From: an uncultured bacterium | GTDB taxonomy: Bacteria; Bdellovibrionota_C; UBA2361; JANWWW01 | Reading direction: 5' to 3' | Assembly (NCBI GenBank): GCA_938038205.1 | Contig: CALHSA010000001.1 | Coordinates: 211 to 64,210 of the forward strand | Length of the DNA: 64,000 bases | Part shown: piece after piece, positions 3,550 through 49,137 of the stretch | How the letters are laid out: each line of letters begins with the position of its first letter | Numbering within the stretch: position 1 is the stretch's first letter | Position numbers and translations under genes: made by a program | The notes under the pieces: generated by a model | Seen by the model: the letters and a program-made list of their open reading frames with translations, nothing else | Told to the model about the DNA's origin: nothing | Databases searched by the model: none

Positions 3550-4200
3550 ATGTCTGCGGCTGTGGTTGAAAAAGGAGCTGTATCTGAGGGCTTGGAGCTA
3601 TGCAAAAAAATAGTGAATGTAATAATAAAAAGATTTGGAATTGATACGAGTTTATACGATGACTTGCTTGGAGCTGCTCAGTTGGGTCTGGCTGAGGCCA
3701 TTAAGCGATATGATTCTTCAAGAGGTGTTGATTTTCTGAGTTTTGCAGCTCTGAGAATTAGAGGGTCGTGCTTAGATTATCTTCGGACCTGCACTCATCT
3801 TGGGCCCAAAGGTTACAAGTTAGCCAAAGCTTTAAAATTATTTCAAGAATATCAAGAGCAAACTTACAGCAAAGGGATTCAAGCCTCTGACTTGATTTGC
3901 ATTGGGGCACTAACTTGGAAAATAACGGTTGAAAAAGATGAGTTAGAGAGAAAACCAACTGAAGAATCTGACCCTGATGCAGAGCTTGAAAAAAAGGAGG
4001 TCACTAAAATTATAAAAGAAATTGTTAAAACTCTTCCTAAACTTTATCGAGATATTTACTCAGCGTGCTACGAGGGAGATATGTCCTTTGCTGATTTTGC
4101 TAGAGGGAGGAGAGTTACAAAAGCTAGTATCTCTAAGGCTCACAAACGAATGCTCGAAATTATTAGAAGCAAACTGTATGAAGCTGGTTATTTTAATTAG
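3550..4200 (+). CDS. Sigma-70 family RNA polymerase sigma factor, FliA/WhiG (sigma-28)-like
   Basis: Region 2 reads LGLAEAIKRYDSSRGVDFLSFAALRIRGSCLDYLR; the RIRGxxxDxLR pattern is typical of FliA-type sigmas. A C-terminal region 4-like HTH is present (RRVTKASISKAHKRMLEII). It is the first gene of the T3SS-like cluster. Confidence 0.75.
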   Translation: MSAAVVEKGAVSEGLELCKKIVNVIIKRFGIDTSLYDDLLGAAQLGLAEAIKRYDSSRGVDFLSFAALRIRGSCLDYLRTCTHLGPKGYKLAKALKLFQEYQEQTYSKGIQASDLICIGALTWKITVEKDELERKPTEESDPDAELEKKEVTKIIKEIVKTLPKLYRDIYSACYEGDMSFADFARGRRVTKASISKAHKRMLEIIRSKLYEAGYFN

Positions 4201-4858
4201 TGCAATATTTTTCCTTGGTTGCAAGGTTTCTTTGCTAAGTTCGTTAAGTGAAGCAGATGCGAATTATGTGCTCCTTTATTTGAGAAAAGCGGGTGTATCT
4301 GCTGAAAAAGTAGGTAAAAATTCAAAGTTTGAGATCAAAGTTCCTGAATCTCAAGTGACTTTAGCATTAGAGGTTATTAATAAGATTAAAATCTACTCAC
4401 ATGATAATTCATTTAAAAAGAACGCTAAGAGCTCTAAAGAGGAAGAAAATTTTTATCTGGAAAGACTCCTTGCAAAAGAACTTGAAGAAACAATCAGGAA
4501 TTTACCTGGGGTAAAAATTGCTCGGGTACATTTATTCTCCCCAAAATATGATTCTTTAGCATTAAAAAAGTTGGAGCTTGATAACTCAAAAGCTGCTGCA
4601 TTAGTTATAACTTCTAAAATTGATGAGATTGAGCCAGAGAAAATTAAAACAATAATTAGTGGAGCAAGTGGGATTCCAGAGAGCAAAATTCAAGTGAATA
4701 TCATGTTCTCTCCTGATTTAGAATTTGAGAACCTTTCAAATTCGGCACCGATTTCACGCTTTTTCACGTTTTCTATCTCTCATTTTTTCACCCTTGTAGC
4801 TCTTTTCTTTGGTTGCTTTGGTTTATATTATGTCTTTAGAAGAACTCCGAAGATTTAA
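4178..4858 (+). CDS. sctJ: T3SS inner-membrane ring lipoprotein, SctJ (YscJ/PrgK/HrcJ) family
   Basis: The N-terminus [44 protein letters not shown] parallels the remembered YscJ ...[45 protein letters not shown] parallels GVLVARVHVVLP. A C-terminal TM helix follows. The start is taken at the internal ATG (4178), just before the lipobox. Confidence 0.85.
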   Translation: [226 protein letters not shown]

Positions 4859-5069
4859 AAATAAGCTGGTTTTAAATTACAACGATGATATCAGTGATCA
4901 AGATATCGTGTACTTAATTCTTTCTCTCCTATTTAATCAGGTTAAAATTACGCAAATTAGGGAGATTGAGTTAGCCTTTCTACTTTGGCTAAGCAAGCGC
5001 TCTCCAGAGAGTATTTTTGAGATTCTTAAAGTTTTGAATAATCAACTTGTTTGCGATGGAGACTGCTGA
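4830..5069 (+). CDS. Hypothetical small protein within the T3SS-like cluster
   Basis: ORF between sctJ and the SpoA-domain gene. ATG at 4830 (MSLEELRRF...). It overlaps both neighbours, consistent with one operon. No recognisable motif. Confidence 0.4.
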   Translation: MSLEELRRFKNKLVLNYNDDISDQDIVYLILSLLFNQVKITQIREIELAFLLWLSKRSPESIFEILKVLNNQLVCDGDC

Positions 5070-5745
5070 GGAGAAAGCGCTATCTGTTTTTCTTTCAAAA
5101 CTTTTCAAACAAAAAATAGCGGTTTTTTCAAGTGTTGCTAATTATACGCGGTTTAAAACACCAGCTTTTTTTGATCACGAAGGCCAGTTGCTTACAGCAG
5201 GAGATCTAATTGTAGCTTTTAGAGCGGCAAATGGCTTGTCGAAATGCGTTAAATATGTGACTTTTGATTCATTAAAAGAGTTAGCTTTTTTCAATATCTT
5301 TTTTGTCGAGTCAAAGATTGATACCAGTTTATGGATAGCGAATGATATTTTAAATTGTCTTGTTGAACAAATTAATTGGGAAAAAGTAGAGACGAGAGGA
5401 CGTTACTTTGCGAGATTATGGAAATCTAAAAATTTTTTAATTTTGGAGGTTAACGATCACCTCTATCTTTCGAAATTCTCTTTAGAGTGGTTAATCGTTA
5501 TGAAAGAAGCGAATTTAAGAGATGTTAAATTGGAAGTATTACTAGGAAATTTAGAATTGACTTTAGAAGAATATGAGAGCCTTAAACCGGGGTCAAAAAT
5601 TAAAATTTCTAATTTTCTTGAGCTTGAGTGTTTACTTAAAGCGGCTGACGTAGAGCTTGGCAAAGGTATAATTGAGCTTACTGAGGATGGTGCAAATCTG
5701 AAAATTTCAAGGTTAGACAAATCAATTTTTTTTAATGATTTATAG
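5056..5745 (+). CDS. sctQ: T3SS cytoplasmic sorting-platform / C-ring protein, SctQ/FliN family (C-terminal SpoA domain)
   Basis: The C-terminus VKLEVLLGNLELTLEEYESLKPGSKIKISNFLELECLLKAADVELGKGIIELTEDGANLKISRL matches the FliN/YscQ SpoA pattern (V.L.V.LG...lTl.El..L..Gs.i.L...G..V....k.gvrI). Confidence 0.65.
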   Translation: METAEEKALSVFLSKLFKQKIAVFSSVANYTRFKTPAFFDHEGQLLTAGDLIVAFRAANGLSKCVKYVTFDSLKELAFFNIFFVESKIDTSLWIANDILNCLVEQINWEKVETRGRYFARLWKSKNFLILEVNDHLYLSKFSLEWLIVMKEANLRDVKLEVLLGNLELTLEEYESLKPGSKIKISNFLELECLLKAADVELGKGIIELTEDGANLKISRLDKSIFFNDL

Positions 5746-5747
5746 CT

Positions 5748-6032
5748 ATGAAAGTTAATGGAATACCATCTGTTCAATCATTAACAGCATTAAGATCAGT
5801 CAAGCTTACATCTGGAAGTGCAAGTTTAAATATTCCAGGTGTAGTAAATCAGGTGCTTGATGGCGCCTCTAACATTTTGAGAGGTATTAATTTACCTCTT
5901 GAAATAAGCCAGCTGCTTCAAGAGCAGTTTAGGATGCAAATGATAATGCTTAACACTAACCTAATAAGCAACATCTCTAAAACAAAGCATGAAGCTAGTA
6001 TGGCCCCAGTTAGAAATATAAGAAGCGGATAA
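5748..6032 (+). CDS. sctF: Candidate T3SS needle filament protein (SctF-like)
   Basis: 94 aa. The C-terminus SNISKTKHEASMAPVRNIRSG has the same spacing as the remembered PrgI/MxiH ends: SN-x2-K-x9-[IV]-[QR]-N-[FI]-R. A preceding QLLxE helix resembles the MxiH QLLAEY helix. Its stop overlaps the sctV start (TAATG). Confidence 0.55.
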   Translation: MKVNGIPSVQSLTALRSVKLTSGSASLNIPGVVNQVLDGASNILRGINLPLEISQLLQEQFRMQMIMLNTNLISNISKTKHEASMAPVRNIRSG

Positions 6033-7801
6033 TGGCTGAAACAACTACAGTTGCAGTTCTACTTGTGGCGGTGCTGGGATTAATAACTCCAGTACCGCCC
6101 TTTTTACTTGATTTTTTTGTAGTTGCGAATCTGCTTTTAGGCATTTTAAGTCTAATTCTTAGTGTTTCTATTAGGGATATTCTTCAATTAAGTTCTTTTC
6201 CAGCCATTCTGTTGACCAATACAATTTTTAGAGTTTGTTTAAGTATTGCTATAACTCGTAGTATTTTGGGAGAGGCTGAGGCTGGAGAAATAGTGAAGAT
6301 TTTTGGGGAAACCCTCTTAGGTGGGAACGTAATACTGGGTATCGTGGTTTATTGTTTAATTACAATTATTCAGTTTTTTGTGATTTCCAAGGGAGGAGAA
6401 AGAGTTGCTGAGGTATCTGCTCGATTTACCCTAGATTCATTACCAGGAAGGCAAATGTCGATTGATGCAGATGTCAGGATGGGGCTTATTGATCCTGAGG
6501 AAGCAAAAAGAAAAAGAGTGGAGCTACAAAATGAGAGTAGGTTTTATGGGGCTCTTGATGGAACAATGAAGTTTGTAAAAGGAGATGCAATAGCCGGAAT
6601 TCTGATCGTTATAGTAAACCTTATTGGAGGTATTGCAATTGGAATCTTAATGCATGATATGGGATTTGAGGAAGCAGTAGCTACTTTCTCTACCTTAAGT
6701 ATTGGAGAGGGATTAGTAAACCAAATTCCTAGTTTTTTAAATGGGTTATCTGCTGGATTTTTGGTTAGCAGAGTAGAGAGAGAGTCTAGTAGCAGCTTAA
6801 GTTCTTTAATCTTTAATCAGCTTGTAACACCTATTAAGCCTAAAGTTATACTTGGATGTTTATGCTTAACTGTACCATTTATCTCCCCGATGCCTTTAGG
6901 TTTATTTTCCACGCTAGGGGTAGGGCTCTTATTATGGTCACTGATTCAACAAACCATTAATCGTAGGTTAACAGAGATAAATTTTCATAACTTTAATCCA
7001 AGCTTAGGTAATCTGCTTACAGTTAAAATACCAAAGAATGCTAATTTTACTCCCGATTTCTCAGAACTTGTTAGACAAGCGATTTTTGATACCTTTGGAA
7101 TTCCAATACTTCGAAGTGCTTTTGTTAATGGGGGAGATGATTTAGAGGTGTTTGTAAGAGATAAGCATGTGGCAACTATAAAAATTACTAGTCAGGAGGA
7201 TACAATTAAGGAGATTGTAACCAGTTTAAAACCACATATATCAAAGCTTGTTGAGGAAAGGTCAATTCAATATTTATATTCTCTTTATGAGACTGGCCGA
7301 GGCACTTTCAATAATGAGCAAACTATCTCTTTGTTTAAAGTCAAAGAAATTGTGCAGACCCTTTTAAAAGATGGAGTTTATCTTTCTCCTTTAGATGTAG
7401 CACTAGAGACACTATTTAATCTTCCTGGCAACATCGATATTGATGATGGGGCCCAAGAGGTTAGGAAAAGAATCCTACCCTACAAATTATCCGGTGAACA
7501 GAATCTAATAGTTTACATGCTTGATCAAAAGGAGTCAGTTGAATTAGAGGAAATGCTAACATCTTGCTCAGTTCTACCATTCAATGTCGTAAAAATCTTA
7601 AAAGAGATTCTCCCTGATGAGGAAAACGTAGTTTTGATTTGCTTTAGACAAACTGCAATTTATCTAAGGAAGGTATTAGGAATGAAAAATGTCAAAATTC
7701 TCTCAACGGAAGAGGTTCCTGATTCTATGAATTTCGAAGTCGTGAATAAAGTTAAACTTGGGGTTGAAGATCATGATTTTACATCTACTGCTTCTTATTA
7801 G
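6032..7801 (+). CDS. sctV: T3SS export-gate protein, FHIPEP family (SctV/FlhA); residue pattern looks injectisome-like
   Basis: Core motif: GGERVAEVSARFTLDSLPGRQMSIDADVRMGLIDPEEAKRKRVELQNESRFYGALDGTMKFVKGDAIAGILIVIVNLIGG. The QMSID and MKFVKGDAIAG variants resemble remembered YscV/LcrD more than E. coli FlhA (QMAID, SKFVRGDAIAG). At 589 aa it is short for the family. Confidence 0.9.
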   Translation: MAETTTVAVLLVAVLGLITPVPPFLLDFFVVANLLLGILSLILSVSIRDILQLSSFPAILLTNTIFRVCLSIAITRSILGEAEAGEIVKIFGETLLGGNVILGIVVYCLITIIQFFVISKGGERVAEVSARFTLDSLPGRQMSIDADVRMGLIDPEEAKRKRVELQNESRFYGALDGTMKFVKGDAIAGILIVIVNLIGGIAIGILMHDMGFEEAVATFSTLSIGEGLVNQIPSFLNGLSAGFLVSRVERESSSSLSSLIFNQLVTPIKPKVILGCLCLTVPFISPMPLGLFSTLGVGLLLWSLIQQTINRRLTEINFHNFNPSLGNLLTVKIPKNANFTPDFSELVRQAIFDTFGIPILRSAFVNGGDDLEVFVRDKHVATIKITSQEDTIKEIVTSLKPHISKLVEERSIQYLYSLYETGRGTFNNEQTISLFKVKEIVQTLLKDGVYLSPLDVALETLFNLPGNIDIDDGAQEVRKRILPYKLSGEQNLIVYMLDQKESVELEEMLTSCSVLPFNVVKILKEILPDEENVVLICFRQTAIYLRKVLGMKNVKILSTEEVPDSMNFEVVNKVKLGVEDHDFTSTASY

Positions 7802-8246
7802 TTCATTTTTTTTATTGATAGGCTGTTCTAGCATTCAGAACACTGGAGTTGATTTAAGGTTAATTTATCTTGATGATTATTTAAACAATGCTAATAGCGA
7901 GTATTTAGTTGGAAATTATGAGAGAGCAGAACTCCTGGCAAGAAAGGCGTTGAGTTTGGATAACTGTAATTCACTCGCCCTGGATATTATAGGGCTGTGT
8001 AGAATAAAAAATGACGATATTGAGGAGGCAGAGAGGAATTTTTACGAAGCAATTAGGTGTAATCCCTTATATCATAAAGGCTATACGCATTTAGCTGTGG
8101 TTTACCATTTAAAGGGTGATCGTGAATCTGCATGGAAACTTTTGCAAAAAGCTTACGATATCAATCCTATGGATATGGAAATAGATGAGGTAAAAGTATT
8201 TCTTTTAAAATCTGAAAATGATTTAGAGGTAGCTTATGAAAACTAA
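7758..8246 (+). CDS. TPR-repeat lipoprotein
   Basis: Signal peptide plus lipobox (LLLISSFFLLIGCSS). About three TPR-like units follow (YERAELLARKALSLD..., AERNFYEAIRCNP..., ESAWKLLQKAYDINP). An alternative ATG lies at 7773. The 5' end overlaps the sctV 3' end. Confidence 0.7.
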   Translation: MGLKIMILHLLLLISSFFLLIGCSSIQNTGVDLRLIYLDDYLNNANSEYLVGNYERAELLARKALSLDNCNSLALDIIGLCRIKNDDIEEAERNFYEAIRCNPLYHKGYTHLAVVYHLKGDRESAWKLLQKAYDINPMDMEIDEVKVFLLKSENDLEVAYEN

Positions 8247-43081: not shown

Positions 43082-43974
43082 ACTTTAACGCGCCTAATCT
43101 AAGAAGTGTTGTTTTATTTTTAAGTTCGCAGAAAGTTGTAAATTTTTGTGGTAAACTTCAAAAGGCTTTAAAATTTCTTATCATTGCCCTTATTGGAATC
43201 TACTTAATACTTTCTGTGCAATCATCGATTAAAGAGGGAATAAACTTTTCAAAAAAAAAGGCGTTAGTTCAATTACCAGAACAAATTCAATTTAAATCTT
43301 CTTTTTTCAAACAGGTAAACCTTAAACAGATTGAACAACAAAAAATTTTCGGTTCACTCTCAGCGGTTACAAAATCAAAGGTTGCGGGTCCTGAGGTTAT
43401 TCAGAAACCCAAGTTTAATTTAGTAGCTACATTTAAAGGAGGAAAAAATAGTTATGCCATAATTGAGGACGGGGGTAGCAGAATTCAGGATGTTTTTGAA
43501 GAAAATGAGTCAGTGTTTGATAAAGCGAAACTTATACGTGTAAATTCGGGGAGTGTAGTAATCAGGTATCTAGATGGCTCGGAGGAAACTCTTTATATTG
43601 ACGATACGAATTTTTCATCCGCTCAGGGGCCTACTACTAAGGGAGTTGAAACGGTTCAGAGAATTGCAGTTAGCAGAGTAACAATTCAAGAATTGACCTC
43701 TGATCTTGCCTCGCTCGCTTCTCAGGCTAGAATAATTCCTTTTTTCCAGGATGGCAAACCTGTAGGCCTTAGAATATTTGGTATTTCTTCAGGAAGCATT
43801 TTTCAGATTTTAGGATTAGAAAATGGAGATATCATAAAATCTGTTGAAGGTTACTCTCTTTTAAATCCTGAAGATGTAAGTAATCTAGTGCAACAACTTA
43901 GAGAAAAGTCTAGAATTAGTGTAATTGTAGAGAGAAATAGGCAGAATGTTGAGATTATTTACGACATTAGTTAG
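43078..43974 (+). CDS. gspC: Type II secretion system protein C (GspC)
   Basis: N-terminal TM helix. HR-like domain: FNLVATFKGGKNSYAIIEDGGSRIQDVFEENESVFDKAKLIRVNSGSVVIRYLDGSEETLYI. C-terminal PDZ: GLRIFGISSGSIFQILGLENGDIIKSVEG. Confidence 0.75.
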   Translation: MNFNAPNLRSVVLFLSSQKVVNFCGKLQKALKFLIIALIGIYLILSVQSSIKEGINFSKKKALVQLPEQIQFKSSFFKQVNLKQIEQQKIFGSLSAVTKSKVAGPEVIQKPKFNLVATFKGGKNSYAIIEDGGSRIQDVFEENESVFDKAKLIRVNSGSVVIRYLDGSEETLYIDDTNFSSAQGPTTKGVETVQRIAVSRVTIQELTSDLASLASQARIIPFFQDGKPVGLRIFGISSGSIFQILGLENGDIIKSVEGYSLLNPEDVSNLVQQLREKSRISVIVERNRQNVEIIYDIS

Positions 43975-46393
43975 TCTCCCTGTATTGCTTTTGGTTGCTC
44001 AACAAGATTTTGACATCATTGCAAGAGAGGCTGATCTTCCTGCGTTAATTAAAGTCTGGAGTAAAAAATTTGGAAAGAATTTTATTCTTGATGAGAGGGT
44101 TAAAGGTAAAGTTACGCTTTACCTTCCTGCAGATTTGAGTGATCAGGATGCACTTAATATTTTAGACCTTCTACTTCACTACAAAGGTTTTGCTTCCGTG
44201 CCGGTTGGAGAGAATCTGTATAAAATAGTGCCTCTGAAAGAAGCTAAACAAGGAACTATTAAAAGCGTGACAACGGCCTCGGAAAACTCTGCAAGTATAG
44301 TAACCAAAATTAGGAAACTGAAATACAACAGCGCTGATGAGATTTCAAAGGTGATTCAACCTCTTCTTGGCCCTGATGGTTTTCTCTCTTCAATATCAAC
44401 TAACAACTCTATTATGATAATAGATTCAGAGCAAAATATAGCTAGAATTGACTCTATTATTAATTCACTTGATGTTCCGCCAACTGAGATTGAACTAACT
44501 ATTATTCCTCTTCAACACACTGATGCGAAGGAAATGGCAGACAGAATAAAGGAGCTTTTTGATCTAGGAAGTGATTCTTCTTCCCTTGGAAGATTAGCTG
44601 ATCCTGCAAGAGCAAGGCCGCAAGCGGTTAGTCTTCCGCAAATGGAGAATGTTCAGGCTCAACAAGCAGGCTTTGTAAGAGTTGGAGCAAAAGAAAGTAA
44701 TGTTAAAGTGGTAGCTGATGAAAGAAGTAATTCAATTATTGTTGTTGCTGATCCTGTAAATACCCTAAAAATACGGGCTATAGTAACTCAATTAGACTCT
44801 CCAGTTAATAGAAGTGGAAGAAGATTCTATTTTTATAAATGTAGGTTTTCCCGAGCAGAGGATATTGCAAGCACTTTAGCGAGTTTAGTTGGTGGTACCG
44901 TTAGCGAGACAAGGAGTCAGCCGCAGCAATTCTCAGAATCTGCTCGAAGAGATAGTTTGTTGCTTGGTCCAAGACAAGATGGCTCAAGGAGTGGACGGAG
45001 ATTGGGAGAAAGTCGAATATCTCAGGATAAGCGACAATCAACGGGTGCAAAAATTTCAGATGATTTGAGTATAACCGCTGATCCCAGTACAAATTCAATC
45101 ATAATATACGCAACAAGATCTGAGTACGAAAAAATCATTAGTTTAATGAAAGACTTAGATGTAAGGAAAAAACAGGTTTTAGTTGAAGCAACGATTTTAG
45201 AGGTTCAGCTTTTAAAACAATTCAACAGTGACATTGACTTTATTACATCACTATCTGGCAAAGAGGCTGGAACTTTCGCGCAGAAAGGTTTAATTGACTT
45301 AGCGAGCATTGTTCAAAATCCTCTTAGTTTGTCTGGCTTTACAGCGGCAGTAGCAGGTGTTGGAACACTAAAAATTGCTGACAATGTTGTTATTCCATCG
45401 CAGGCAGCCCTTGTTAGCGCCGCGCAAGCCTCTCAGATTGCGAATGTTTTGAGTGCGCCGCAAATTCTTACTCTTGATAACGAGGATGCGGAGATTTTGG
45501 TAGGACAGAATGTTCCTTTTGTAGTATCTCAATCTACAACTCTTACTAATCTGGATAATCGATTTAATCAGATTGATAGGCAAGATGTTGGAATAACTCT
45601 TAGAATAAGACCCCAAATCGCATCAGAGGATTTAGTTAACTTAAAGATTTTCCTTGAGGTTTCATCTGTTGTTCCTGGGACCGATTCAAACCAACAGGGA
45701 CCCACTACGAATGTAAGAACTCTAGAGACCACAATCTCTGCTAAAAATGGACAGATGATAGTAATTGGAGGACTAATAACAGATGATGCTTCGGAAAGCT
45801 CAGATGGCATACCTTTCCTAAGGGATATACCTGTGATCGGAAATCTTTTTGGTGGTTTAGTGGAAAAAAAGGAGAAAAGAAACCTACTATTATTTATAAC
45901 CCCGAGAATTTTAGTAGATCAGTTCGATTTAAGGGATGAAACTCTGGTTAGAACTAACAGAATGAGAGCAACCATTCAAGAAATACCAAACTCAGTATCA
46001 AGAGACGGGGTGTTAAAAAATCCGGCCATTGATGATGTTCTAATTTTTAACGAATTCGTAAAACCAAATTACCCACCGAGTTTTTCCCCGCAGAGGTCGG
46101 TTTCTGATTTAAGTGAAAAACCAGTAGAGAAGAAGGGTGTTACATTACGTTTAAAAAATACCTGTAAGATTGATGAGCTTCCATTTAAAGTTTTAAATTC
46201 GAGTGCTTGTATTAAGATCAATCAATCAGATTTACTTGATCAAGCCTTGAGTAGTAAGTTACTTGTATATTCTTTACAATCCGGAGATTGTGTTTTTGAG
46301 GTATTAGGCCCTAGTGAGAGTGGTAATTGTTATGAGTTAACTGGCTATGAACTAAGTCGGTTTGGAAAGGATCCATGGCAGTTAAAGAACTAG
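43946..46393 (+). CDS. gspD: Type II secretion system secretin GspD (with internal low-complexity insert and long C-terminal extension)
   Basis: Signal peptide and N0-N3 repeats (e.g. VVADERSNSIIVVADPVN, ITADPSTNSIIIYAT). Secretin domain: VLSAPQILTLDNEDAEILVGQNVPF...MIVIGGLITDD...GIPFLRDIPVIGNLFG...LLLFITPRIL. Confidence 0.9.
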   Translation: MLRLFTTLVSLPVLLLVAQQDFDIIAREADLPALIKVWSKKFGKNFILDERVKGKVTLYLPADLSDQDALNILDLLLHYKGFASVPVGENLYKIVPLKEAKQGTIKSVTTASENSASIVTKIRKLKYNSADEISKVIQPLLGPDGFLSSISTNNSIMIIDSEQNIARIDSIINSLDVPPTEIELTIIPLQHTDAKEMADRIKELFDLGSDSSSLGRLADPARARPQAVSLPQMENVQAQQAGFVRVGAKESNVKVVADERSNSIIVVADPVNTLKIRAIVTQLDSPVNRSGRRFYFYKCRFSRAEDIASTLASLVGGTVSETRSQPQQFSESARRDSLLLGPRQDGSRSGRRLGESRISQDKRQSTGAKISDDLSITADPSTNSIIIYATRSEYEKIISLMKDLDVRKKQVLVEATILEVQLLKQFNSDIDFITSLSGKEAGTFAQKGLIDLASIVQNPLSLSGFTAAVAGVGTLKIADNVVIPSQAALVSAAQASQIANVLSAPQILTLDNEDAEILVGQNVPFVVSQSTTLTNLDNRFNQIDRQDVGITLRIRPQIASEDLVNLKIFLEVSSVVPGTDSNQQGPTTNVRTLETTISAKNGQMIVIGGLITDDASESSDGIPFLRDIPVIGNLFGGLVEKKEKRNLLLFITPRILVDQFDLRDETLVRTNRMRATIQEIPNSVSRDGVLKNPAIDDVLIFNEFVKPNYPPSFSPQRSVSDLSEKPVEKKGVTLRLKNTCKIDELPFKVLNSSACIKINQSDLLDQALSSKLLVYSLQSGDCVFEVLGPSESGNCYELTGYELSRFGKDPWQLKN

Positions 46394-47916
46394 ATTTATC
46401 AAAGGTAGAGCTACCGATTGTGCCAGATAAATCAGTTTTTGATAAAATTCTAGGAGTTTGGGCGAAGGAAAGGCTTACTGTTCCATGCTGTTATGATGGA
46501 CAAAACATAGTATTGATTCAGAAAGGCTCTAAGAATTTATCTGCCTTATATCAATTAAAAAAACTATTAAAATCAAATCTTCAAGTTGTTCAGTTACCAG
46601 ATAGCGATGTTCTTAGAGCTTACTCAGAGTTAAGGAGTAAGCTAATGGCAGACCCTACCCTTACTTCGCTTGCTGGATCAGGGGATGGGCAGCTTTCAGA
46701 TTCTTACGTAAAATTTGAGGTTACGGAGGCGACTGAGGATGACGCACCGGTTATACGCTACGTAAACTCGTTAATTTTTAGAGCTAGTCAACAGAAAGCA
46801 TCAGATATTCATATAGAGCCTTTTGAGGATTGTGTAAAAATTCGATTTAGGATTGATGGAAGATTGTATGATGTTGCGAGGGAAGATAAAGGGTTCAGCT
46901 CCGCCATCATCTCGAGAATTAAAATTTTGGCTGGTATGGACATTGCAGAGAGAAGGTTGCCTCAGGATGGGCGTATAGGAGTTACAGTTACCGGAAGAGA
47001 GTTGGATCTCAGAGTTTCTTCTATTCCTACACAGTTTGGTGAGAGAATTGTTTTGCGTCTTCTTGACAAGAGTGGAGCTTTACTAGAGTTAGAGGATCTT
47101 GGACTTGAAGGGGATAATCTAAACACACTGCTGAATCTTATTCAAAAACCTAACGGAATAATTCTTGTTACTGGACCTACTGGAAGCGGTAAAACTACTA
47201 CTCTTTATGCATGTCTTAAAAGGATAAACACTGAGGATAAAAACATTTTAACAGTAGAAGACCCTATAGAATATCAAATAGAGGGAATAGGTCAGATGCA
47301 AGTTAACAATAAAATAGGGTTTAGTTTTGCGACTGGCTTACGCTCAATTTTAAGACAAGATCCTGATGTTGTAATGGTAGGTGAGATAAGGGATACAGAA
47401 ACAGCTGAGATTGCAATTCAAGCATCATTAACAGGCCATCTTGTTTTTTCAACTTTACACACAAATGATGCACCAGGGGCTATAACTCGATTAATTGATT
47501 TGAATATAGAGCCTTTTTTAGTCTCAAGTAGTTTATTGTGTGTTTTGGCGCAGCGATTAGTGAGAAAATTGTGCCCTTATTGTAAGAAGCCTATCAGAAT
47601 TAATGCACAAGATTTTTATAATCTAGGCTGGCAGGGTAAATTCGATGTTCCTTATTTGGATATTTATGGCCCCGGAGACGAAAATTGTACTCATTGCACT
47701 AATATAAGGTACTTAGGGAGAACCGGAATTCATGAGCTATTAGTGATTAAAGAAAATTTACGGCCACTAATTGTTGGAAGGGCTGATTCTAGAGAAATAA
47801 GAAAGGTAGCTGAAAAAGAGTTGAATTTTAGATCTTTGAGAGTGGATGGTTTACAAAAAGTTTTAAAAGGAATTACTTCAATTGAAGAAGTGCTAATGGT
47901 TACTCATGAAGATTAA
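46375..47916 (+). CDS. gspE: Type II secretion system ATPase GspE
   Basis: Walker A VTGPTGSGKTTTLYA, Asp box, Walker B VVMVGEIRD, His box LVFSTLHTNDA, tetracysteine motif CPYCKK...CTHC. Confidence 0.95.
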   Translation: MAVKELDLSKVELPIVPDKSVFDKILGVWAKERLTVPCCYDGQNIVLIQKGSKNLSALYQLKKLLKSNLQVVQLPDSDVLRAYSELRSKLMADPTLTSLAGSGDGQLSDSYVKFEVTEATEDDAPVIRYVNSLIFRASQQKASDIHIEPFEDCVKIRFRIDGRLYDVAREDKGFSSAIISRIKILAGMDIAERRLPQDGRIGVTVTGRELDLRVSSIPTQFGERIVLRLLDKSGALLELEDLGLEGDNLNTLLNLIQKPNGIILVTGPTGSGKTTTLYACLKRINTEDKNILTVEDPIEYQIEGIGQMQVNNKIGFSFATGLRSILRQDPDVVMVGEIRDTETAEIAIQASLTGHLVFSTLHTNDAPGAITRLIDLNIEPFLVSSSLLCVLAQRLVRKLCPYCKKPIRINAQDFYNLGWQGKFDVPYLDIYGPGDENCTHCTNIRYLGRTGIHELLVIKENLRPLIVGRADSREIRKVAEKELNFRSLRVDGLQKVLKGITSIEEVLMVTHED

Positions 47917-49137
47917 ATGCCACTATACGAGTATTTGGCCTCATCAATAAAAACTGGTGAACTTGTTAAAGGCGAGTTAGAGGCTGATTCCCTTCGTAAC
48001 CTTCGAGTAAATTTACGAAATAATGGATTAGTTTTACTAGAATATTCTGAGAGTGGCAAGCAAGTTGAAAAATCAAAGAGTGTTATAGGGGTACAGCTTA
48101 AGAGAGTAGGTTATTCAGACCTTACTATTTTTACAAAACAATTCGTTACTTTACTCTCAGCGGGTTTTCAGTTGGTTCCAGCTCTTTCTAAAGCGAGTCA
48201 ATTGGTAAAAAATCAAACTTTAAAGGCTTCATTAGTACAAATAAGAGAGAAAGTTGAAGAAGGTAAAAGCTTTAGTGCTGCATTATCGGCTTATCCGAAT
48301 ATATTCCCAGATTTTTACATTAATATGGTAGCTGCAGGCGAGAGATCTGGCAATTTAGAGGCTGTTTTACATAATCTCGCCTCTTTTCTTGAGCGTCAGG
48401 TTGAGTTAACGCGAAAAGTTGTAAGTTCTCTTTTTTATCCTGCAATTATGTTATTGCTAAGTGTCGTTGTTATCATAGTTCTTTTTACTGTTGTTGTCCC
48501 TCAAATCGCTGAAATCTTTGTTAAAGAGGGTGCTAAATTACCATTTATTACAAGGTTAATCCTTGGGGTTAGTTGGTCAATTAAGGAATTTTGGTGGTTA
48601 ATTTTAGGAGTAATCCTACTTATCTTCTTGCGTATTAATCAACTAAGAAAAACCGATGAAGGGAAAGGTAAGATTGATAAGTTTATTTACTCTTTACCAG
48701 TGGTTGGAGAGATTTTATTTAAAATTGATATTGCTAGGTTTGCTCTTACGCTAGGATCTCTATTAAGAGGGGGTGTTGGAATAGTTAATGCTCTAGAGTT
48801 ATCCAAAAAGGTGTTACAAAGTTCTGTGTTAAGACAGAATGTTGTATCAGCTCTTGATGAGGTTAAAAGAGGTAGATCATTATCTGTTTCCCTAAGCTCA
48901 TCCAAATTCCCAGATTTATTCTTGTCGATGATCGCAGTAGGAGAGCAAAGTGGAAATTTGGAAAAAATGCTTCTAAATATTTCTGATTACTATGAGAAGG
49001 ATGCAACTCATTCGCTACAAACTTTAGTTAATTTGATTGAGCCCATATTGATCGTCATTATTGGTTTAATAGTTCTGATAGTCGTTTTTGCTGTAATAAC
49101 TCCTATTGTCGATATGATTAATATTCTTAAAAAATGA
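47917..49137 (+). CDS. gspF: Type II secretion system inner-membrane platform protein GspF
   Basis: Two GspF/PilC repeats (FTKQFVTLLSAGFQLVPAL...MVAAGERSGNLE and ARFALTLGSLLRGGVGIVNAL...MIAVGEQSGNLE) with three TM segments. Confidence 0.9.
   Translation: MPLYEYLASSIKTGELVKGELEADSLRNLRVNLRNNGLVLLEYSESGKQVEKSKSVIGVQLKRVGYSDLTIFTKQFVTLLSAGFQLVPALSKASQLVKNQTLKASLVQIREKVEEGKSFSAALSAYPNIFPDFYINMVAAGERSGNLEAVLHNLASFLERQVELTRKVVSSLFYPAIMLLLSVVVIIVLFTVVVPQIAEIFVKEGAKLPFITRLILGVSWSIKEFWWLILGVILLIFLRINQLRKTDEGKGKIDKFIYSLPVVGEILFKIDIARFALTLGSLLRGGVGIVNALELSKKVLQSSVLRQNVVSALDEVKRGRSLSVSLSSSKFPDLFLSMIAVGEQSGNLEKMLLNISDYYEKDATHSLQTLVNLIEPILIVIIGLIVLIVVFAVITPIVDMINILKK

Follow-up and report, generated by a model that had tools for sequence, protein, structure and literature searches.

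Of all the components of type III secretion machines, the needle and inner-rod subunits are those that annotation overlooks most often. Among non-flagellar type III secretion systems (T3SS), the secretin-less 'Myxo' systems have been reported without the needle subunit SctF, and the same authors postulate an ancestor that had no secretin but did have an SctF-based structure (Abby and Rocha, 2012, PMC3459982). The T3SS* of M. xanthus, which acts in prey lysis, is called needle-less as well (PMC12428579, PMC11509652). Our literature search found no description of a non-flagellar T3SS from Bdellovibrionota, nor of the protein family that is the subject of this work.

We analysed a stretch of 64,000 nucleotides (the window) from the genome of an uncultured bacterium (1.22 Mb in 46 contigs, 35% G+C, 81% complete). 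It contains part of a T3SS and, within the same operon, a small gene, orf94 (5748..6032, forward strand), which a preliminary description made from the DNA letters had proposed as the needle subunit. Here we present evidence that orf94 encodes a divergent member of the SctF/SctI (needle/inner-rod) superfamily, and we weigh which axial role it might play.

Results

Operon organisation

The T3SS genes of the window all lie on the forward strand. At the head of the operon stands a gene for a FliA/WhiG-like (sigma-28-type) sigma factor (3550..4200; Sigma70_r2, and TIGR02479 at E 6e-21, below the cut-off of that model), which is first in the conserved order in 24 of 27 related loci. An SctJ-type inner-membrane ring lipoprotein follows (longest open reading frame 4022..4858; PF01514, E 1.8e-13), scoring 72.9 bits with the SctJ model TIGR02544 versus 17.4 bits with FliF; its true start probably lies further downstream than 4022, at the signal peptide. 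The position where sctK or fliG-N would lie is taken by an 86-aa open reading frame (4809..5069) that matches nothing in Pfam or NCBIfam, and after it comes a 232-aa SctQ/FliN-like protein with a SpoA C-terminal domain (5047..5745; PF01052 FliMN_C, E 0.0023, below cut-off), whose position is kept in relatives.

Two nucleotides separate the stop codon of the SctQ/FliN-like gene from the ATG of orf94, which has 94 codons as the preliminary description reported. Its other end also agrees with that description, as the TAA of orf94 and the ATG of sctV share one base (TAATG). The SctV export-gate protein is short, at 589 aa (6032..7801; PF00771, E 1e-117), and scores higher with the non-flagellar model (TIGR01399 hrcV, 378.8 bits) than with FlhA (333.3 bits). 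These family models cover only residues 5-309, the membrane domain, and the remaining cytoplasmic part of roughly 280 residues is matched by no SctV or FlhA C-terminal model. A model for the short Chlamydia-type FlhA, PRK05910, covers residues 7-380.

Downstream of sctV lies a TPR protein (7758..8246; TPR_1/2/8 matches) that has a hydrophobic segment at its N-terminus as well as a lipobox-like LLIGC. This gene is a conserved member of the operon, detected by BLAST 3' of sctV in 10 of the 27 loci. The operon ends with a small protein of 85 aa, rich in lysine and acidic residues (8236..8493), which has no family match in Pfam or NCBIfam and weak homologues in the same position in 5 loci. A convergent pilMNOQ operon adjoins on the minus strand (8490-14554). 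We rejected a functional link between the two operons as a conserved feature, pilQ being found nearby in none of the 27 related loci, and for the same reason a pilotin link from the TPR lipoprotein to PilQ is unsupported by synteny.

The place of orf94 directly upstream of sctV, with translational coupling to it, would also suit a non-structural partner that binds the cytoplasmic ring of SctV: either an exported early substrate or regulator of the YscX kind, or a gatekeeper fragment resembling TyeA. In known systems, yscX/yscY or gatekeeper genes hold the position immediately upstream of sctV, and the cytoplasmic domain of SctV is unusually short here. We nevertheless consider this role quite improbable, given that orf94 shows no similarity to gatekeeper or YscX families in Pfam or NCBIfam, that its significant profile links lead instead to SctF-like and SctI-like families (see below), and that the TPR neighbour bears a lipoprotein signal and is hence no cytoplasmic YscY-like chaperone.

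The remainder of the secretion machine

The core of the non-flagellar T3SS is distributed over three contigs, with SctJ, the SctQ-like protein and SctV encoded in the window, SctR, SctS, SctT and SctU on contig C24, and an sctL-like/sctN-like pair on contig C41. The window cluster is therefore one third of a dispersed system. On C24, the second, divergent export apparatus reads, in order, an 80-aa open reading frame, a 202-aa open reading frame, SctR, SctS, SctT and a 209-aa SctU. A full flagellar set is encoded separately (FliP and FlhB on contig C16; FliI, FliE, FlgB and FlgC on contig C18; further rod and hook genes). Judged by gene content, the window cluster is thus part of a second T3SS, non-flagellar in type and nearly universal in the phylum.

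SctU appears to be genetically split at about its autocleavage site (C24:28903-32555). The 209-aa gene product ends in KYIVVG, a 926-aa histidine kinase gene comes next, and the 80-aa open reading frame behind the kinase resembles the post-cleavage part of FlhB/SctU (PF01312 positions 289-330, E 0.0072). In most of the phylum's genomes there are two or three homologues of FliP/SctR, so that some lineages carry a third export gate of T3SS type.

The preliminary description held that a needle gene would settle the cluster as injectisome-type, and the secretin data do not bear this out. The model for YscC-type secretins, TIGR02516, was over its cut-off in none of the 124 genomes of the phylum, and the window genome has one PilQ-type and one GspD-type secretin and no others. 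The GspD-like secretin (815 aa) is followed by open reading frames of 513 and 406 aa in the window (43946-49137), and from its secretin domain alone this module probably serves type II secretion or a related process. Among the genes of the loci examined, none was recognisable as SctD or as a translocon component, and the main SctU gene has no switch domain. With YscC-type secretins absent from every genome of the phylum, the label 'injectisome' is not settled; the missing dedicated secretin, together with the main SctU gene that lacks a switch domain, makes a long external needle doubtful.

Conservation of the orf94 family

A word-indexed search returned 5-6 close homologues of orf94, all from metagenome-assembled genomes (MAGs) labelled Deltaproteobacteria, in which the C-terminal half (46 residues) is almost invariant and the N-terminus is variable. 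An exhaustive profile search extended the family to 146 cluster representatives at E<1e-3, typically of 95-105 aa and always matching at the C-terminus. The family consensus reads ...LLxxQxxxQxxMQxVSMxSNIEKSxHETxMAPxRNIRVG, with Q60, N75, H81, M85, R89 and N90 invariant and L56, Q64, S74, E82 and R92 nearly so, and most members also have an N-terminal R-x-x-P-E-P-K-S motif.

Within the GTDB phylum of the window genome (Bdellovibrionota-like), 112 of 124 genomes carry the family, as do 72 of the 73 that are of high quality. A pattern scan of species-representative genomes yielded 27 loci, all from MAGs labelled Bdellovibrionota, Deltaproteobacteria or Proteobacteria, and in all of them the order sigma28-like, sctJ, (x), sctQ, orf94, sctV, TPR was found wherever the contig was long enough. 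Thus orf94 is a real gene, conserved throughout the phylum. No Pfam or NCBIfam model covers the family, and the two sampled members that bear a name in their source are both called 'hypothetical'.

The C-terminal motif on which the needle proposal had been built, SN-x2-K-x9-[IV]-[QR]-N-[FI]-R, is present in orf94 as S74 N75 .. K78 .. V88 R89 N90 I91 R92, in a tail that counts 21 residues and not 22. In a post-hoc test it occurs once in the six-frame open reading frames of the genome (522,000 residues) versus 0.0007 occurrences expected by composition. Orthologues keep it, as had been anticipated: of 143 family members, 62 have it in its strict form and 134 if the pattern is relaxed. The further likeness seen between QLLxE at the start of the preceding helix and QLLAEY of MxiH is one residue off the register set by SN...R; what holds, in the best gapless register, is that L56 and Q60 match the conserved leucine and glutamine of the needle helix.

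Predicted fold

An AlphaFold2 model built from the 143-sequence alignment has mean pLDDT 71 and pTM 0.38. Residues 1-28 are disordered, helix 29-46 is predicted with pLDDT 60-70, and a turn at 47-50 (NLPL) leads into a long helix, 51-93, with pLDDT 90-96 and a kink at P87; this second helix is the part that is nearly invariant in the family. The expected sequence of helix, turn and helix is therefore predicted, and the packing of the two helices into a hairpin is not confident because of the pTM of 0.38. The model is compatible with a needle-type hairpin to which an N-terminal extension has been added.

Direct comparison with needle and rod families

The profile check against needle families that the preliminary description had proposed came out negative. 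The orf94 protein has no match at E<=1 in Pfam, PF09392 included, or in NCBIfam, and a six-frame search of the window genome with PF09392 returned nothing at E<=10. Across the family, PF09392 touches 2 of 143 members (best E 0.011), which is noise level and no more than random families achieve, and the SctI family PF17001 matches neither orf94 nor its own family. Profile searches over all PDB chains, run once with the close family alignment (A1) and once with the wide one (A2), turned up no needle at E<=10. The top PDB resemblances of the close-family profile were to the N- and C-terminal motifs of FlgF, at a non-significant E of about 1. Foldseek gave no usable match in the PDB for either AlphaFold model, a search limited by the low pTM of both models; simple hairpins are in any case poorly handled by Foldseek.

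As a yardstick we used EprI (needle) and EprJ (inner rod) from a commensal E. coli strain of bovine origin that has the cryptic ETT2 locus, eprI being absent from the ETT2 remnant of E. coli K-12. From the needle side we obtained an alignment of 32 SctF sequences (A4); the word search with SctI returned near-identical E. coli sequences only, too narrow a set for a diverse SctI alignment. Aligning the wide orf94 family with hhalign to the single EprI or EprJ sequence gave nothing significant. Against the SctF alignment it gave P 0.1 and a probability of 0.6%, a score that 3 of 60 column-shuffled SctF alignments also reached. The only alignment returned is gapless, begins at the turn proline and runs for 43 columns up to the terminal arginine, in the register of the preliminary description. 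Our own profile-profile scoring put the same register first of all diagonals at 20.2 bits, a score reached by 0 of 2000 shuffles of the orf94-family columns and by 2 of 2000 shuffles of the SctF columns. In this register the coinciding conserved positions (orf94/SctF) are L56/L43, Q60/Q47, S74-N75/S61-N62, K78/K65, E82/D69, N90/N77 and R92/R79. The homology extends over one helix of about 40 residues.

For calibration, we compared the SctF alignment with the genuine SctI of the same E. coli locus, and this pair reached only P 0.16. The comparison thus has little power, and its failure for orf94 says little.

Homology through intermediate families

Searching the 124 genomes of the phylum in six frames with PF09392 yielded four matches, none of which passed the cut-off. 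Of these sub-threshold matches, three were small open reading frames related to the orf94 family or lying beside it, and they led us to a second family, here called type-2. Type-2 proteins have 76-140 aa and consist of a helix, a short turn rich in Gly, Asp and Pro (e.g. SGDP) and a helix that ends in ...TNxxKxxHDxxMxxIRNLRxx.

The orf94 family aligns with type-2 at high significance (hhalign of A2, E 8.5e-11 and probability 97% with type-2 alignment A6; E 2.1e-8 and probability 95% with type-2 alignment A7), over the last 40-42 columns and up to the very C-terminus. The real score was 48.7, compared to 15.9 for the best of 60 column shuffles and 14.8 for the reversed alignment. Type-2 in turn connects to solved needles: the A7 profile found the needle protein YscF (2p58_B) in the PDB with E 1.7e-5 over 71 positions, and also 7y6c_F, a 43-residue chain deposited under the name of a needle co-chaperone (E 3e-4). 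PF09392 matches 5 of 11 members of A6 (best E 6.4e-5), and no other family recurs there. In a larger type-2 set, PF09392 and the flagellar rod C-terminal family were the only ones to match more than two members, the latter (Flg_bbr_C, PF06429) touching 4 of 24 without significance.

A further link runs to the inner rod. The 80-aa open reading frame upstream of sctR on C24 (C24:26537-26779) keeps its position across the phylum, and its family (A5) is matched by PF17001 in 14 of 17 members (best E 5e-6), although the window genome's own copy has no Pfam match. The top PDB match of this family is MxiI, and hhalign against E. coli EprJ gave P 1.9e-4. By these profile matches, the 80-aa family beside sctRST is assigned to SctI, which gives the system an inner rod. 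The orf94 family aligns with this SctI family too (hhalign of A2 with A5, P 3.5e-5, probability 72%; real score 31.5, best of 60 shuffles 18.9, reversed alignment 12.3).

The chain from the orf94 family through type-2 to YscF, with the side link to SctI, places orf94 in the needle/inner-rod superfamily. The proposed identity as a needle subunit thus stands in so far as orf94 is a relative of needles and inner rods through intermediate families, and falls short in the direct profile tests, which fail or are marginal. By this transitive homology, which is strong, orf94 is a very divergent axial protein of the SctF/SctI superfamily and not a recognisable member of PF09392, and its reading as a needle subunit is partly supported. 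The kind of protein is already known; the needle-superfamily variant that this phylum carries throughout is new.

These profile links also bear on whether the resemblance might be due to chance, with orf94 being a small helical protein of unrelated function or no gene at all. Direct family tests were negative or marginal, which would fit a fortuitous likeness, and spurious profile matches are frequent with short amphipathic helices. Against this stand the presence of the gene in 112 of 124 genomes and its fixed position in 27 loci, an hhalign score three times that of the best shuffled or reversed control, and the fact that the top sub-threshold PF09392 matches in 124 genomes turned out to be relatives of the orf94 family. 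Taken together, we regard chance as highly improbable.

A more canonical needle-like paralogue

At E<=1e-3, roughly every second genome has a type-2 gene, two or more matches being present in 54 of them; examples of type-2 genes are L092:1439-1669(-), L097:2890-3162(+) and L099:7939-8169(-) in related genomes. The type-2 gene lies directly between the orf94-family gene and sctV in 17 genomes or more. In others it stands as an orphan with housekeeping genes for neighbours (RF-1/PrmC, HisRS, EPSP synthase, GroEL). The first sign of this paralogy was a tandem of an orf94-type and a type-2 gene upstream of sctV in one related genome (L024:4073-4723, equal to G024:C12). We considered the orphans as parts of hidden injectisome clusters and rejected this, the neighbours being housekeeping genes. 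Two genomes, G109 and G110, have a needle-like type-2 orphan at a distance of about 7 kb from an SctR-like gene.

The window genome, its sister and most of a 35-species genus have the orf94 family without type-2, with the proviso for the window genome that, at 81% completeness, a type-2 gene could be absent from the assembly. Within the window genome, the orf94-family profile (A2) and the type-2 profile (A6) match orf94 alone, and the SctI profile (A5) matches the 80-aa open reading frame alone. For orf94 as the needle itself, as first proposed, the support is partial, since a paralogue that is more canonically SctF-like occurs in about half of the phylum; where type-2 is present, the orf94 family may not be the filament.

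The paralogy raises a second axial role for orf94, namely a short proximal layer of fixed copy number, which as an additional rod or adaptor would be the counterpart of flagellar FliE and FlgB and would connect the SctI-like protein to a distal, SctF-like type-2 filament where type-2 exists. The orf94 family may hold this proximal place in all lineages, some of which would add the more variable distal subunit. Several features of the two families point this way. The C-terminal 40 residues of the orf94 family are almost invariant throughout the phylum, as one would sooner expect of an adaptor that is buried than of a filament subunit that is exposed, and type-2 is much more variable and closer to YscF. 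Type-2 genes are often orphans among housekeeping genes, as genes for major filaments are, and the two genes stand in tandem upstream of sctV in the genomes counted above. The long disordered N-terminus followed by helices recalls the architecture of SctI and FliE. However, the genomes that lack type-2 have nothing else for the distal part, and a true SctI-like protein is already there, so that we judge an adaptor to be a somewhat unlikely role for orf94. A role as FliE itself was rejected, as the flagellar locus has its own FliE.

Because orf94 is the sole SctF-like gene in this genome, we favour a needle-equivalent role here; the extreme conservation of its family favours a buried position. 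On balance, we therefore hold with moderate confidence that orf94 is a strongly diverged axial subunit of the SctF/SctI superfamily and the needle-equivalent of the second, non-flagellar T3SS.

Discussion

If orf94 is the needle-equivalent of this T3SS, a pathway for its assembly can be outlined. The protein has no Sec signal, and its disordered N-terminal third would serve as the T3SS export signal. Translational coupling to sctQ through the 2-nt gap and to sctV through the TAATG overlap would tie synthesis of orf94 to that of the basal body. The SctRSTU/SctV gate would export it, with power from SctN and SctL, whose genes form a pair at another place in the genome. Beyond the gate, orf94 would polymerise on the SctI layer, with the nearly invariant C-terminal helix packing into a helical axial channel built on the 80-aa SctI-like protein, and the conserved polar residues Q60, N75, K78, E82, R89, N90 and R92 would occupy the positions of conserved needle residues. 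As the sole SctF-like paralogue in the genome, orf94 is the best candidate for the needle-equivalent. With no T3SS secretin in the phylum, the structure would probably be short and periplasmic, or else take another route across the outer membrane.

The three small families (orf94, SctI-like and the YscF-like sister family) offer testable proteins for structural work. If the system is a living form of the secretin-less intermediate considered below, the label 'needle-less' in predatory bacteria would reflect failed annotation of fast-diverging small axial proteins, not their true absence. Recognition of the three families bears directly on how injectisomes evolved from the flagellum (PMC3459982), and on how bacterial predators could pass proteins to their prey by the so-called needle-less T3SS* (PMC12428579).

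Compared with SctF needles (PF09392; YscF in PDB 2p58, EprI of E. coli ETT2), orf94 is likewise small, has its gene in a locus for a non-flagellar T3SS and is predicted as helix-turn-helix; its C-terminal helix can be aligned gaplessly with theirs between the turn proline and the terminal arginine, and its conserved L, Q, S-N, K, acidic residue, N and R coincide with theirs. It differs in about 30 extra disordered N-terminal residues rich in Gly, Ser and Ala, which include 'PEPKS' in most members, and in its signature K-H-E...M-A-P-V-R-N-I-R-x-G, which has a proline in the helix and two residues past the terminal arginine. The turn contains a single proline and not PxxP. Unlike SctF systems, the orf94 machine has no secretin, and no chaperones of YscE/YscG type are among the genes recognised.

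SctI proteins (PF17001; MxiI, PrgJ, YscI, EprJ) resemble orf94 in their length of about 100 aa, disordered N-terminal half and conserved C-terminal helix. However, this system already has its SctI in the 80-aa family, and the tail of orf94 resembles SctF and not SctI. Resemblances to flagellar FliE and to the FlgB/C/F/G rod proteins are weak, and the genome has its FliE, FlgB and FlgC in the flagellar locus.

A further parallel is with the Myxo T3SS*, which is also non-flagellar, belongs to a lineage related to predatory bacteria, lacks a dedicated secretin and, like the loci examined here, has no recognisable translocon genes. Unlike the Myxo systems as published, the phylum described here has retained one protein like SctI together with one or two like SctF. 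From these gene families, it is very probable that such systems are not gates devoid of an axial structure, and that they build a rod or needle yet have no secretin. Tentatively, we raise the possibility that a phylum-wide, secretin-less T3SS with inner-rod and needle-family subunits is a living example of the intermediate postulated by Abby and Rocha, with a periplasmic or otherwise unconventional SctF-based structure.
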